From Escherichia coli (GTDB lineage: Bacteria; Pseudomonadota; Gammaproteobacteria; Enterobacterales; Enterobacteriaceae), in assembly GCF_003334335.1 (NCBI RefSeq), contig NZ_QOWQ01000019.1: a DNA stretch of 64,000 bases. The stretch is one strand, 5' to 3'. This document shows, piece by piece, positions 3,676-21,890 of the stretch. Every line of letters starts with the position of its first letter. Within the stretch, counting starts at the first letter, position 1. The notes beneath the pieces were generated by a model that was not told where the DNA came from, ran no database searches, and saw only the letters and a program-made list of their open reading frames with translations. The translations under genes were made by a program, and so were the position numbers.

Positions 3676-4191
<516 letters not shown>

Positions 4192-4198
4192 CACTAAC

Positions 4199-4224
4199 GC
4201 CCGCACATTGCTGCGGGCTTTTTG
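4199..4224 (+). terminator. rho-independent terminator after uspF
   Basis: Hairpin GCCCGCA-cattgc-TGCGGGC followed by TTTTT. Confidence 0.6.
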
Positions 4225-4367
4225 ATTCATTTCGCAAATGTGCTGACATTTTCCCCTCTAATCCGTACCATACACGCCACAGTTTTTTATATCAGATTTC
4301 TTATGCTGGGCGTTCCGGCATGACGCATACTCTTCTGATGCCATATAACGAATTGAGTCGCTTTTAA

Positions 4368-5303
4368 ATGTCGCAAAATCAAGAAATTAGTAAGAAAGAA
4401 CAATACAACCTGAACAAATTACAAAAACGTCTGCGTCGTAACGTGGGCGAAGCCATTGCTGACTTCAATATGATTGAAGAAGGCGATCGCATCATGGTTT
4501 GCCTCTCCGGGGGTAAAGACAGCTATACCATGCTGGAGATTCTGCGCAATTTGCAGCAAAGCGCGCCAATCAATTTTTCGCTGGTGGCTGTTAACCTCGA
4601 TCAAAAGCAACCGGGCTTCCCGGAACACGTTCTGCCCGAGTATCTTGAAAAGCTGGGCGTTGAGTACAAGATTGTTGAAGAGAATACTTACGGTATCGTG
4701 AAAGAGAAGATTCCAGAGGGCAAAACCACTTGCTCACTGTGTTCTCGCCTTCGTCGCGGTATCCTTTATCGTACCGCAACGGAACTGGGGGCGACGAAGA
4801 TCGCGTTGGGTCACCATCGTGACGATATCCTGCAAACGTTGTTCTTAAATATGTTCTACGGCGGTAAGATGAAAGGTATGCCTCCGAAACTGATGAGCGA
4901 TGATGGCAAACATATCGTTATTCGTCCGCTGGCCTACTGCCGCGAGAAAGATATTCAGCGATTTGCCGATGCAAAAGCGTTCCCGATTATTCCGTGCAAC
5001 CTGTGCGGTTCACAGCCTAACCTGCAACGTCAGGTGATTGCTGACATGTTGCGTGACTGGGATAAACGTTATCCAGGGCGTATCGAGACGATGTTCAGCG
5101 CGATGCAGAATGTGGTGCCGTCGCATCTGTGCGATACCAACCTGTTCGATTTCAAAGGCATCACCCACGGTTCTGAAGTGGTTAACGGGGGTGATCTGGC
5201 GTTTGATCGCGAAGAGATCCCACTACAACCGGCGTGCTGGCAGCCAGAAGAAGATGAAAATCAGTTGGATGAGTTACGGCTGAATGTGGTTGAAGTGAAA
5301 TAA
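4368..5303 (+). CDS. ttcA: tRNA 2-thiocytidine(32) synthetase
   Basis: 311 aa; PP-loop SGGKDS motif and CxxC pairs; N-terminus [56 protein letters not shown] matches recalled TtcA. Confidence 0.92.
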
Positions 5304-16079: not shown

Positions 16080-16595
16080 ATGCTGAGATTACTTGAAGAA
16101 AAAATTGCCACGCCACTGGGTCCACTGTGGGTGATTTGCGATGAGCAATTTCGCCTGCGGGCGGTTGAATGGGAAGAGTACAGCGAACGCATGGTGCAGC
16201 TGCTGGACATCCATTATCGCAAAGAAGGCTATGAGCGCATTTCTGCCACCAATCCAGGCGGTTTAAGCGACAAGCTTCGTGAATATTTTGCCGGTAATCT
16301 TAGCATTATTGATACGCTTCCCACTGCTACGGGGGGGACGCCATTTCAGCGCGAAGTCTGGAAAACACTACGCACTATCCCCTGCGGGCAGGTAATGCAT
16401 TACGGCCAACTGGCTGAGCAATTGGGCCGTCCTGGCGCGGCGCGTGCCGTTGGTGCGGCAAACGGATCGAATCCCATCAGCATCGTCGTACCTTGCCATC
16501 GGGTTATTGGCCGAAACGGCACCATGACCGGATATGCAGGCGGAGTTCAGCGAAAAGAGTGGTTATTGCGCCATGAAGGTTATCTTTTGCTGTAA
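16080..16595 (+). CDS. ogt: O6-methylguanine-DNA methyltransferase
   Basis: 171 aa; active-site PCHRV motif; N-terminus [26 protein letters not shown] matches recalled Ogt. Confidence 0.9.
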
Positions 16596-16756
16596 ACATT
16601 AAACAATTTGTGCCAGCTTGTTCACACTTTTATGTAAAGTTACCCTTAACAACTTAAGGGTTTTCAAATAGATAGACATATATTTACATCTAATATCGGA
16701 ATTCTCTGCTGTTAAGGTTTGCTTAGACTTACTTGCTCCCTAAAAAGATGTTAAAA

Positions 16757-16770
16757 TTGACAAATATCAA
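16757..16770 (+). promoter_or_regulatory. FNR box in the fnr promoter (autoregulatory site)
   Basis: TTGACAAATATCAA is a near-perfect match to TTGAT-N4-ATCAA, about 20 bp upstream of the fnr ATG. Confidence 0.55.
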
Positions 16771-16789
16771 TTACGGCTTGAGCAGACCT

Positions 16790-17542
16790 ATGATCCCGGA
16801 AAAGCGAATTATACGGCGCATTCAGTCTGGCGGTTGTGCTATCCATTGCCAGGATTGCAGCATCAGCCAGCTTTGCATCCCGTTCACACTCAACGAACAT
16901 GAGCTTGATCAGCTTGATAATATCATTGAGCGGAAGAAGCCTATTCAGAAAGGCCAGACGCTGTTTAAGGCTGGTGATGAACTTAAATCGCTTTATGCCA
17001 TCCGCTCCGGTACGATTAAAAGTTATACCATCACTGAGCAAGGCGACGAGCAAATCACTGGTTTCCATTTAGCAGGCGACCTGGTGGGATTTGACGCCAT
17101 CGGCAGCGGCCATCACCCGAGCTTCGCGCAGGCGCTGGAAACCTCGATGGTATGTGAAATCCCGTTCGAAACGCTGGACGATTTGTCCGGTAAAATGCCG
17201 AATCTGCGTCAGCAGATGATGCGTCTGATGAGCGGTGAAATCAAAGGCGATCAGGACATGATCCTGCTGTTGTCGAAGAAAAATGCCGAGGAACGTCTGG
17301 CTGCATTCATCTACAACCTGTCCCGTCGTTTTGCCCAACGCGGCTTCTCCCCTCGTGAATTCCGCCTGACGATGACTCGTGGCGATATCGGTAACTATCT
17401 GGGCCTGACGGTAGAAACCATCAGCCGTCTGCTGGGTCGCTTCCAGAAAAGCGGCATGCTGGCAGTCAAAGGTAAATACATCACCATCGAAAATAACGAT
17501 GCGCTGGCCCAGCTTGCTGGTCATACGCGTAACGTTGCCTGA
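16790..17542 (+). CDS. fnr: fumarate/nitrate reduction global regulator FNR (CRP/FNR family)
   Basis: 250 aa from ATG 16790; N-terminus [43 protein letters not shown] with the Cys cluster of the Fe-S sensor; the track ORF from 16733 is an upstream extension. Confidence 0.95.
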
Positions 17543-17693
17543 TTTTTCCGCATAACTCACTATCCTTCTGTCATATCATTAAATTTTTCTGATTTATTGA
17601 TCTGGCAGAAGGTTCATCACTGTTTCATTCACCAGATATGGGTTAATCTTTTAATTACAAACTGCGTTGACAGTTGTTGTAAGGAGACCCTGT

Positions 17694-18644
17694 ATGGCTA
17701 TGTATCAGAACATGCTCGTTGTTATCGATCCTAACCAGGACGACCAACCAGCATTGCGGCGAGCTGTTTATTTACATCAACGGATTGGTGGCAAAATTAA
17801 AGCCTTTTTGCCGATCTATGACTTCTCATACGAAATGACCACCCTGCTCTCCCCGGACGAACGTACCGCTATGCGTCAGGGCGTCATCAGCCAGCGTACA
17901 GCCTGGATCCACGAGCAGGCAAAATATTATCTCAATGCTGGCGTTCCCATTGAAATTAAAGTGGTCTGGCATAACCGTCCTTTCGAAGCCATCATTCAGG
18001 AAGTGATCAGCGGCGGACACGATTTGGTGCTAAAAATGGCGCACCAACATGACCGTCTGGAAGCGGTGATTTTTACGCCAACGGACTGGCATCTGTTACG
18101 CAAATGCCCAAGCCCGGTGTGGATGGTGAAAGACCAGCCGTGGCCGGAAGGAGGCAAGGCGCTGGTGGCGGTGAATCTCGCCAGTGAAGAGCCGTATCAT
18201 AATGCGCTCAATGAAAAACTGGTCAAAGAGACGATCGAACTGGCAGAACAAGTCAACCATACCGAAGTTCATCTGGTTGGCGCTTATCCGGTAACGCCAA
18301 TTAATATCGCGATTGAACTGCCGGAATTTGACCCGAGCGTTTATAACGATGCCATTCGTGGGCAACATTTGCTGGCAATGAAAGCCCTGCGGCAGAAATT
18401 CGGCATTAATGAAAACATGACGCACGTAGAAAAAGGTCTGCCAGAAGAGGTGATTCCTGATTTGGCGGAGCACTTACAGGCGGGGATTGTGGTTCTGGGC
18501 ACGGTAGGACGCACCGGTATTTCAGCAGCATTCCTCGGCAACACGGCGGAACAGGTGATTGATCATCTTCGCTGCGACCTGCTGGTCATTAAACCTGACC
18601 AGTATCAGACACCCGTTGAACTGGATGACGAAGAAGACGATTAA
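17694..18644 (+). CDS. uspE: universal stress protein E (tandem Usp domains)
   Basis: 316 aa from ATG 17694 preceded by AAGGAG; [17 protein letters not shown] matches recalled UspE. Confidence 0.9.
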
Positions 18645-18664
18645 CGACTCTTCAATAACTGACA

Positions 18665-18691
18665 AGGCCCGAGTTATCGGGCCTATTTTTT
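18665..18691. terminator. hairpin terminator between convergent uspE and ynaJ
   Basis: AGGCCCGA-gtta-TCGGGCCT followed by ATTTTTT. Confidence 0.5.
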
Positions 18692-18693
18692 AC

Positions 18694-18951
18694 TTACTGC
18701 TCTTCGCCGCCAAGGAAATAAATTCCCAACGGGATTGCCAGCAACACAGTAAAGACCAGGCTATAAACAAAAATCATCGATGACTGAATCACATACATTG
18801 ATGTCGTCCACTCAGACAGCGGAATATTGTACTGTTCTATAACGCCGCCGATGGTCGCGCGAGTCACAACCGACGCCGCAATAATGAAAACCGCCAACAA
18901 ACCAAAGAGAAATTTCTTCCCTTTCGCTGACTTCAGTTTCGCCATAATCAT
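18694..18951 (-). CDS. ynaJ: small inner-membrane protein YnaJ (DUF2534)
   Basis: 85 aa; two predicted transmembrane segments; N-terminus MIMAKLKSAKGKKFLFGLLAVFIIAASV matches recalled YnaJ. Confidence 0.8.
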   Translation of the reverse strand: MIMAKLKSAKGKKFLFGLLAVFIIAASVVTRATIGGVIEQYNIPLSEWTTSMYVIQSSMIFVYSLVFTVLLAIPLGIYFLGGEEQ

Positions 18952-19194
18952 GATGTAATCCTTGTGCAGACAAATTTCTTGTTACCTAAACGTAACAATA
19001 CCATGACATTTCACCGTTGTCTGCTCTGAAAACCTCACCTCTTAGCTGGATTTACAATCAACGCATTGATTAGTTAGCTAATGTTGCTACTTCCTTCCCT
19101 GACTATTGATGATCTGAATGAATTGTCGCGGTAAAATAGCCCCGCCAGGGGTTTCCGGCATGACGACAATTATCTGGAGGAGCCTGATAAAACA

Positions 19195-20226
19195 ATGATC
19201 GCTGAACTGTTTACAAATAATGCGCTTAATCTGGTCATTATTTTCGGTAGCTGCGCAGCATTGATTCTGATGAGCTTTTGGTTTCGCCGTGGAAATCGTA
19301 AAAGAAAAGGATTTTTATTCCATGCGGTGCAATTTTTAATCTACACCATAATTATCAGTGCTGTTGGTAGCATTATTAATTATGTTATAGAAAACTATAA
19401 ACTCAAATTTATCACCCCAGGCGTTATCGATTTTATCTGTACGTCCCTGATTGCGGTTATTCTGACGATTAAGCTATTTCTGCTGATTAATCAGTTTGAA
19501 AAACAGCAGATTAAAAAAGGTCGCGATATCACCAGTGCGCGGATTATGTCGCGTATCATCAAAATCACCATTATTGTGGTGCTTGTTCTGCTTTATGGCG
19601 AACATTTCGGCATGAGCCTTTCTGGCTTGCTGACCTTTGGTGGTATTGGTGGTCTGGCTGTCGGTATGGCCGGTAAAGATATTCTGAGTAACTTCTTTTC
19701 CGGGATTATGCTCTATTTCGACCGTCCTTTCAGTATTGGCGACTGGATCCGTTCACCGGACAGAAATATCGAAGGTACAGTAGCGGAAATTGGCTGGCGA
19801 ATTACCAAAATTACGACCTTTGATAATCGTCCATTGTACGTACCGAACTCGCTGTTTTCGTCGATCAGCGTAGAAAACCCAGGACGAATGACCAACCGCC
19901 GCATTACCACGACCATTGGTTTACGTTATGAGGATGCGGCAAAAGTGGGCGTTATTGTCGAAGCTGTACGTGAGATGCTGAAAAATCACCCGGCCATCGA
20001 CCAGCGACAAACCTTACTGGTTTATTTCAACCAGTTTGCTGACTCTTCATTGAATATTATGGTTTATTGCTTTACCAAAACCACGGTATGGGCTGAATGG
20101 CTTGCTGCACAGCAAGACGTTTATTTGAAGATTATCGATATTGTACAGTCACACGGCGCGGACTTTGCCTTCCCCAGCCAGACGCTGTATATGGATAACA
20201 TTACACCGCCGGAACAGGGTCGCTAA
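19195..20226 (+). CDS. ynaI: MscS-family mechanosensitive channel YnaI
   Basis: 343 aa; N-terminal transmembrane helices followed by an MscS-like beta domain; position next to ynaJ as in K-12. Confidence 0.88.
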
Positions 20227-20237
20227 ATCAGACATCA

Positions 20238-20265
20238 CTGGCGTTATGCACAAGGGTAACGCCAG
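20238..20265. terminator. hairpin between convergent ynaI and mppA
   Basis: CTGGCGTTA-tgcacaaggg-TAACGCCAG, a 9-bp stem. Confidence 0.5.
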
Positions 20266-20276
20266 TTCCCATCACA

Positions 20277-21890
20277 TCAATGCTTCACAATATACATAGT
20301 CCGACTGTACGCCACATCTTCAGGATTATTAATGGGATAACCTTTCAGCCACGGCTTGATTAATCGTCCATTGGTATATTGATAAATTGGTGCAATCGGT
20401 GCTTGCTCCATGAGGATTTTTTCTGCCGCGTTGTAATCGGCATTACGCGCTTTAACGGTATTTTCCGTCGATGCCTGGGCCAGAACTTTGTCATATGCCG
20501 GATTGTTAAAGCGTGAAATATTTCCTGAATGCGTTGACGTTAATAATGTCAGGAAAGTGGAGGGTTCATTATAATCCCCCACCCACGAGGCGCGGATAAC
20601 ATCAAAATTGCCGGTGTTACGGCTATCGATATAGGTTTTCCATTCCTGATTTTGCAATTTAACATCTACGCCAAGGTTCTTTTTCCACATCGATGCTACA
20701 GCAATCGCAATTTTTTGATGGTTTTCTGAAGTGTTATACAAAAGCGTCAGCTTCAGCGGTTTTTGCGGACCATAACCAGCTGCGCTCAACAAAGTTTTTG
20801 CCTGCGCATTCAGTTCTTCCTGACTCATTTGTTCAAACGGCGAAGGTTCCGGCGTAAATCCCGCGGTAACATCTGGTGTAAAATGCCACGCTGGCTTTTC
20901 GCCCGTCCCTAATACTTTTTCGGTCATCAGGCGGCGATCTATCGTCATACTTAATGCCAGACGAACGCGCTGATCTGCCGTCGGCCCTTTTTGCGTGTTA
21001 AACGCATAATAATAGGTCCCGAGCTGCGGCGGCGTATAAACCTGCCCCGGAATATCCTTCAACAGCTTCTGATACATATTTTTCGGGAAGGATTCGGTGA
21101 TATCAATATCCCCCGCGAGGTAACGCTTAGTGGCTGCGGATTCCTGATTAATTGGCAGGAAGGTCACTTTTTGCAGTACCGTTTTGGCGTTATCCCAATA
21201 ATGGGTATTCGGTACCACGACCAGTTTTTCATTGACTACGCGCTCTTTAAGAACATAAGCGCCATTGCCGATCAGATTTCCGGGTTTCGTCCACTCTTTA
21301 CCGCTTTCTACGTTGGCTTTTTGCACCGGGAAGAAGGCAAAGTTAGCGGTTAAATTCACAAACCACGGCAACGGTTTATCAAGCTGAATTTTCAAAGTAT
21401 GGGCATCAACTGCGGTGACGCCAAGCTGGTCAGGCGTAGCTTTACCATCAATAATCGCCTGTGCGTTGTTGATTCCCGCCAGCGCGGCAAACCATGCAAA
21501 TGGCGACAATGTTTTTGGGTCCACCAGACGTTGCCAGCTGTAGACAAAATCTTGCGCCGTTACCGGTGTGCCATCCGCCCATTTTGCGTTATCGCGCAGG
21601 GTAAAAGTCCAGATACGGTTGTCATTACTTTTCCACTGAGTCGCAACGCCGGGGACAATCTCCCCTTTTTCGTTCTGATTCACCAGACCTTCAAACAGAT
21701 CGCGAATGACCTGAATCTCTGGCAGGCCCACGGCTTTAGCGGGATCCAGCGACGCAGGCTCATCTTTAATGTGGCGCACCAGCTCCTGCTTCTCTGCCAG
21801 TACTGTGCCGCTCGGAACTTCTGCAGCATACGAAAGAGAAATGCTGCTGACCAACAGCGCACAACACGTGACTGAAACAGAGTGCTTCAT
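20277..21890 (-). CDS. mppA: periplasmic murein tripeptide-binding protein (OppA paralogue)
   Basis: About 537 aa from ATG 21890 (MKHSVSVTCCALLVSSISLSYA signal peptide, matching recalled MppA); the track ORF extends 7 codons upstream. Confidence 0.88.
   Translation of the reverse strand: MKHSVSVTCCALLVSSISLSYAAEVPSGTVLAEKQELVRHIKDEPASLDPAKAVGLPEIQVIRDLFEGLVNQNEKGEIVPGVATQWKSNDNRIWTFTLRDNAKWADGTPVTAQDFVYSWQRLVDPKTLSPFAWFAALAGINNAQAIIDGKATPDQLGVTAVDAHTLKIQLDKPLPWFVNLTANFAFFPVQKANVESGKEWTKPGNLIGNGAYVLKERVVNEKLVVVPNTHYWDNAKTVLQKVTFLPINQESAATKRYLAGDIDITESFPKNMYQKLLKDIPGQVYTPPQLGTYYYAFNTQKGPTADQRVRLALSMTIDRRLMTEKVLGTGEKPAWHFTPDVTAGFTPEPSPFEQMSQEELNAQAKTLLSAAGYGPQKPLKLTLLYNTSENHQKIAIAVASMWKKNLGVDVKLQNQEWKTYIDSRNTGNFDVIRASWVGDYNEPSTFLTLLTSTHSGNISRFNNPAYDKVLAQASTENTVKARNADYNAAEKILMEQAPIAPIYQYTNGRLIKPWLKGYPINNPEDVAYSRTMYIVKH

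Follow-up and report, generated by a model that had tools for sequence, protein, structure and literature searches.

The 243-bp spacer between ynaJ and ynaI in the Escherichia coli DNA analysed here (a stretch of 64 kb, referred to as the window) is almost certainly the native, never-IS5-occupied ancestral allele of the K-12 IS5F locus, working as a divergent promoter region. The difference from K-12 is already documented and ordinary: IS5F is present in K-12 and absent from most E. coli. The spacer (G+C 42%) and its two flanking genes, both found in the open reading frame (ORF) listing and annotated in an identical genome and in K-12, are:

18694–18951, minus strand: ynaJ coding sequence, an 85-aa DUF2534 inner-membrane protein
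18952–19194: ynaJ-ynaI intergenic spacer, 243 bp, IS-free divergent promoter region, in all likelihood the K-12 IS5F locus in its state before insertion
19195–20226, plus strand: ynaI coding sequence, a 343-aa MscS-family low-conductance mechanosensitive channel (channel function, PMC3508906)

The locus and the K-12 insertion point

Several finished E. coli genomes match positions 1–25000 of the window at 100% identity, among them CP8-3_Sichuan, in which RefSeq annotates ynaJ and ynaI at exactly the window coordinates within the gene order nifJ-ompN-uspF-ttcA-dbpA-...-ogt-fnr-uspE-ynaJ-ynaI-mppA-pgrR. The same genome carries an annotated partial ‘NAD-dependent dehydratase’ pseudogene fragment in the ycjY-mpaA interval (window 24255–24392), the corresponding place in K-12 being annotated with the small ORFs ymjC and ymjD. 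By both ORF listing and annotation, ynaJ (minus strand) and ynaI (plus strand) are transcribed divergently, away from one spacer; divergent transcription of the pair is likewise stated in the literature (PMC11677980). ORFs contained entirely in 18952–19194 do not exceed 31 aa, the inverted repeats of the spacer are 8-nt pairs at chance level with IS-like termini absent, and the IS5 terminal repeat GGAAGGTGCGAA is absent from both strands of the 64-kb window. The original prediction of a 243-bp gap without a transposase ORF or terminal inverted repeats is thus borne out, the gap by the ORF coordinates and the annotation of the identical genome, and its contents by the ORF, repeat and IS5-end searches.

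The prediction had further held that K-12 carries an IS5 between the two genes. We checked whether K-12 might have no IS here, and NC_000913.3 annotates ‘insertion sequence:IS5F’ at 1396044–1397238 (insH4/b1331), between ynaI (b1330) and ynaJ (b1332). This element is 1195 bp long with 16-bp terminal repeats; insH4 is oriented towards ynaJ, and the left IS5 end adjoins the ynaI side. A copy 100% identical to wild-type IS5 is also described in the ynaI/ynaJ intergenic region of BW25113, from which it was removed in experiments on IS5 transposition (PMC11677980).

Alignment of the window to the K-12 ynaI-insH-ynaJ region placed the insertion at 19074–19077, with duplication of CTAA/TTAG. The K-12 flanks, 121 bp on the ynaI side and 126 bp on the ynaJ side, match the two ends of the spacer in the window at 247/247 bases (compared by script), and they overlap by exactly CTAA (121 + 126 − 4 = 243). 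The features at the insertion point are:

19074–19077: TTAG (CTAA on the minus strand), the 4-bp target duplicated by K-12 IS5F and, independently, by ISKpn26 in strain Eco_23-3571
19074–19081: TTAGCTAA motif, the first half of which is the TTAG target
19070–19081: run of three YTAR tetramers, TTAGTTAGCTAA, which contains TTAGCTAA

The K-12 junctions (a slash marking each boundary) read ...TTAGCTAA/GGAAGGTGCGAACAAG...CTTATTCGCACCTTCC/CTAACTAATC in short form, and ...ACATTAGCTAA/GGAAGGTGCGAACAAG...(IS5, 1195 bp)...CTTATTCGCACCTTCC/CTAACTAATCAATG... at greater length. The empty site is TTAGTTAGCTAA, and the K-12 junctions place the duplication unambiguously at 19074–19077. The window, by comparison with K-12 IS5F/insH4, has the same locus and flanks, lacks the 1195-bp IS5, and contains the 4-bp target once, against twice in K-12.

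The prediction had singled out TTAGCTAA as fitting the YTAR preference of IS5, and its TTAG half is indeed the K-12 insertion point. The spacer holds 5 YTAR tetramers, with about 1.9 expected from the window-wide density, YTAR being the broader rule for IS5 targets. The self-complementary 8-mer TTAGCTAA occurs 2 times in the 64-kb window and is, taken alone, statistically unremarkable; it is the K-12 comparison, and not chance statistics, that gives it significance. CTAA and CTAG are given as typical IS5 targets (PMC11677980).

Promoters and conserved elements in the spacer

For ynaI, an experimentally validated transcription start site (MG1655 1395973, reverse strand) is given in the Reg-Seq supplement, citing Mendoza-Vargas 2009 (PMC7567609), and was mapped onto the window with the ynaI ATG as anchor (1395922 in K-12, 19195 in the window). 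Reg-Seq reports only RNAP footprints for ynaI, at −48 to −6, with no regulator sites reported (PMC7567609). No published ynaJ start site was found in the literature searched. Conservation was scored in an alignment of 28 spacers, that of the window and those of 27 Escherichia, Citrobacter and Salmonella loci, with conserved blocks defined at a threshold of at least 85%. The blocks (letters given for the plus strand) and the candidate elements are:

18947–18951: ATCAT, at least 85% conserved, first ynaJ codons, outside the spacer
18959–18963: TCCTT, at least 85% conserved, ynaJ Shine-Dalgarno on the minus strand
18965–18968: TGCA, at least 85% conserved
18979–18998: palindrome TTGTTAC-N6-GTAACAA, read from the sequence, overlapping the predicted ynaJ −10 and start region
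18980–18985: TGTTAC, at least 85% conserved, left arm of the palindrome
18994–19008: AACAATACCATGACA, at least 85% conserved, holding the predicted ynaJ extended −10
18995–19003, minus strand: predicted ynaJ extended −10, TGgTATTGT, within the conserved block 18994–19008
19018–19023, minus strand: predicted ynaJ −35, CAGACA, 17 bp upstream of the −10
19018–19024: TGTCTGC, at least 85% conserved, at the predicted ynaJ −35
19109–19112: ATGA, at least 85% conserved, ynaI −35 region
19132–19137, plus strand: ynaI −10 hexamer TAAAAT, at −12 to −7 of the published start site
19132–19138: TAAAATA, at least 85% conserved across the three genera, at the ynaI −10
19144, plus strand: ynaI start site, with a 51-nt 5′ UTR, the literature position mapped via the identical flank
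19160–19143, minus strand: terminator-like hairpin, TGCCGGAAACCCCTGGCG then GGGCTATTTT, inside the ynaI leader and on the opposite strand to ynaI

The putative ynaJ promoter would comprise CAGACA, 17 bp and TGgTATTGT (19023–18995), with a start near 18988. A sigma-70 consensus scan of 18600–19300 returned 0 promoters at the 9-of-12 threshold; both promoters are therefore weak matches to the consensus, from which each deviates in its −35 element, and it is conservation that points to the one assigned to ynaJ. The two promoters would stand back to back, that of ynaI reading rightwards and the predicted ynaJ promoter leftwards, with the IS5 target in the poorly conserved middle. Mean conservation is lowest, at 0.36–0.51 per 10 nt, over 19040–19079, which contains the IS5 target, and, counted from the ynaI start and the predicted ynaJ start, the target lies at about −70 and roughly −86, respectively. 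Since it falls between the cores, the K-12 insertion would separate the two core promoters and destroy neither, and this sparing of both cores may be why it was tolerated.

On the ynaJ side, the palindrome at 18979–18998 is a speculative candidate for a ynaJ operator. Across Escherichia, Citrobacter and Salmonella, its arm TGTTAC and the block AACAATACCATGACA hardly vary while its centre does, a pattern that would be typical of a regulator binding site. Genomic SELEX lists ynaJ among the predicted CRP targets (PMC3105977); inspection by eye of the ynaJ side revealed no correctly spaced TGTGA-N6-TCACA.

The palindrome, with its cross-genus conserved arm, and the hairpin flagged on the minus strand at 19160–19143 could be taken as signs that the spacer also holds an unannotated functional element, be it a small RNA, a small protein or a structured leader. 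We consider this improbable in view of the evidence against each form of it: an Rfam scan of 18000–20500 gave zero matches at E ≤ 1, the predicted folding of the ynaI 5′ UTR is no stronger than that of shuffled sequence (z = 0.02), the ORFs of the spacer reach at most 31 aa with 0 in conserved blocks, conservation in the hairpin region (19140–19169) is only 0.36–0.56, and the K-12 annotation is empty in either flank. The hairpin was dismissed as a terminator, given its poorly conserved segment and the lack of an upstream gene on the minus strand, and is probably fortuitous.

Ancestry of the uninterrupted state

An 851-bp query around the spacer matched 5423 of 5426 complete E. coli genomes, and was found in one place in 5056 of these 5423 (about 93%); at most this many spacers are truly uninterrupted, since the count takes in short insertions joined by BLAST, e.g. 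the IS1 in strain WEM25. The exact K-12 ynaI-side junction (240-bp query) is present at full length in 353 genomes. Sixty of these full-length matches were taken at even steps, and all 60 proved to be laboratory K-12 strains, derivatives or transconjugants, including MG1655, W3110, DH5alpha, DH1, J53, C600/EC600, JM109, MC4100 and O16:H48. About 13 genomes are neither contiguous nor of the K-12 or ISKpn26 type (367 non-contiguous − 353 − 1).

Outgroup loci were recovered by scanning one genome per species with a back-translated YnaI motif, ynaJ and ynaI then being located by tblastn. In all 27 loci with both genes (E. albertii, E. whittamii, two other Escherichia species, divergent E. coli, about 20 Citrobacter, and S. 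enterica arizonae and diarizonae) ynaJ and ynaI are divergent, with IS-free spacers of 234–249 bp; the TTAG target itself is conserved only within part of E. coli. These 27 IS-free outgroup and divergent loci imply that the uninterrupted state is ancestral and that IS5 is a derived insertion of the K-12 lineage. The prediction that the window shows the ancestral arrangement is accordingly supported, by the majority state in E. coli, the IS5 junction confined to laboratory K-12 derivatives in every case sampled, and the IS-free outgroups. In the K-12 lineage, IS5F (insH4) would have split the locus at TTAG 19074–19077, duplicating 4 bp.

The same YnaI motif (10 residues, back-translated) also matches MscS-family genes in distant bacteria, including Brucella/Ochrobactrum (about 59% identical to YnaI), Chlamydiae, Planctomycetes, Desulfurellales and Clostridium (loci L012, L015, L018, L020, L021, L023, L025, L027, L029, L036, L038, L040, L042, L044 and L045). 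No ynaJ neighbour was detectable by tblastn in the distant MscS-family loci, so that, among the loci recovered, only the enterobacterial ones show the ynaJ-ynaI pairing.

A precise excision would have restored this very sequence, with one scarless TTAG, and ‘never occupied’ is for this reason reached by parsimony rather than read directly from the DNA. A history in which the lineage once had IS5 here and lost it by precise excision, the uninterrupted state being secondarily restored, is nevertheless very improbable, as it needs a gain and an exact loss where zero events otherwise suffice. It also sits poorly with an IS5 junction seen only in laboratory K-12 derivatives among the 60 sampled, with the roughly 93% of E. 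coli that have the query in one place, and with the 27/27 IS-free outgroup and divergent loci. The many natural isolates that are 100% identical to the window over 25 kb are IS-free, which suggests that the window strain is nested among IS5-free relatives. Precise excision was rejected on parsimony. An assembly artefact, with the repeat collapsed or skipped, is more improbable still: IS copies are well known for causing assembly errors, but assemblers usually break contigs at an IS rather than splice seamlessly with a single target copy, and the same seamless 25 kb recurs at 100% identity in many independently finished genomes. The ancestral, never-occupied spacer is thus the reading we retain.

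Recurrent insertions and the K-12 context

The insertion point has been used by other elements. In Eco_23-3571 (NZ_CM176496.1, African green monkey), ISKpn26, an IS5-family element, occupies the identical TTAG at 19074–19077, with its own TTAG duplication and in the orientation opposite to that of K-12 IS5; its junctions read ...GATTAGTTAG/GGAAGGTGCGAACAAG...CGCACCTTCC/TTAGCTAATG and were found in 1 genome only in a junction search of genomes. A further independent insertion, of IS1A, is present in strain WEM25 (NZ_CP061530.1), with junctions ...GCTACTTCC/GGTAATGACTCC...(IS1)...GCATCACC/GCTACTTCCTTCCC, and lies 9 bp beyond TTAG in the one genome examined. Both are the same spacer as in the window with different elements. 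The IS1A target is:

19086–19094: GCTACTTCC, the 9-bp target duplication of IS1A in WEM25

The three independent insertions (IS5, ISKpn26 and IS1A) fall within 21 bp (19074–19094 in the window), a clustering of three events only that was noticed after the fact. YTAR sites occur at a density of about 0.008 per bp, i.e. about 38,000 candidate targets in a 4.75-Mb genome, and the chance that one of about 9 ISKpn26 copies re-uses a given tetranucleotide is of the order of 1e-4 to 1e-3, a post hoc estimate that takes no account of selection against disruptive insertions. In a simple nearest-neighbour calculation, the 25-mer spanning the site, which is locally AT-rich, falls within the least stable 4.6% of the window and the least stable 10.6% of the spacer; as a pointer to low duplex stability as a possible cause of targeting, this is suggestive without being decisive. 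That 19074–19094 is a genuine recurrent IS landing pad, midway between the ynaJ and ynaI core promoters, is a tentative proposal that we regard as rather doubtful; if it is one, the cause could be local DNA melting or bending, or that this is the sole insertion-tolerant part of the spacer. The re-use of a small stretch by three IS elements is mildly new, as are the conservation-based ynaJ promoter and palindrome predictions.

The finding means little beyond bookkeeping, in respect of strain identity, fnr stability and K-12 promoter studies. As to identity, the window represents a non-K-12 E. coli without two K-12-specific mobile elements, IS5F and Rac, and the isolates identical to it over 25 kb come from pig, dog, cattle, human and water sources, among others. 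In K-12, the 23-kb Rac cryptic prophage (1411899–1434958) lies between ttcA and uspF and carries IS5Y in lomR; in the window, uspF (3757–4191) and ttcA (4368–5303) are adjacent, Rac being missing from 4192–4367, and this is probably the other uninterrupted place that the original prediction counted when it called the spacer a second one.

With respect to fnr, a W3110 stock (CGSC) lost ynaJ, uspE and fnr when b1331 recombined with another IS5 lying beside ogt, beyond fnr, and fnr deletions had been noted earlier in CGSC MG1655 stocks (PMC2072959). Sawers 2005, cited in PMC3149613 (reference 42), concerns an IS5 upstream of fnr. The window has the same ogt-fnr-uspE-ynaJ-ynaI neighbourhood as the W3110 deletion stock (16080–20226) without either IS5: its ogt-fnr spacer (16596–16789) is intact, 194 bp as in MG1655, and IS5-free. 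Because both copies are absent, loss of ynaJ, uspE and fnr by IS5-IS5 recombination is impossible here.

IS5 copies upstream of bglGFB, glpFK, flhDC and fucAO activate neighbouring genes. The K-12 copy is similarly placed upstream of promoters, about 70–90 bp from two start sites (that of ynaJ being predicted), its target CTAA falling where the DNA is AT-rich and melts easily. The literature searched yielded no report that this copy affects the expression of ynaI or ynaJ; any such effect would be absent from the window strain, which has no IS at the site. Since IS5 begins 71 bp upstream of the start site at 1395973, K-12 studies of the ynaI promoter include IS5 sequence upstream of −70, and the wild-type ynaI promoter context is that of the window. 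If the landing pad were genuine, the K-12 IS5 may measurably alter ynaI or ynaJ expression relative to wild strains, and the K-12 data on the low-abundance YnaI channel would come from a perturbed promoter context.
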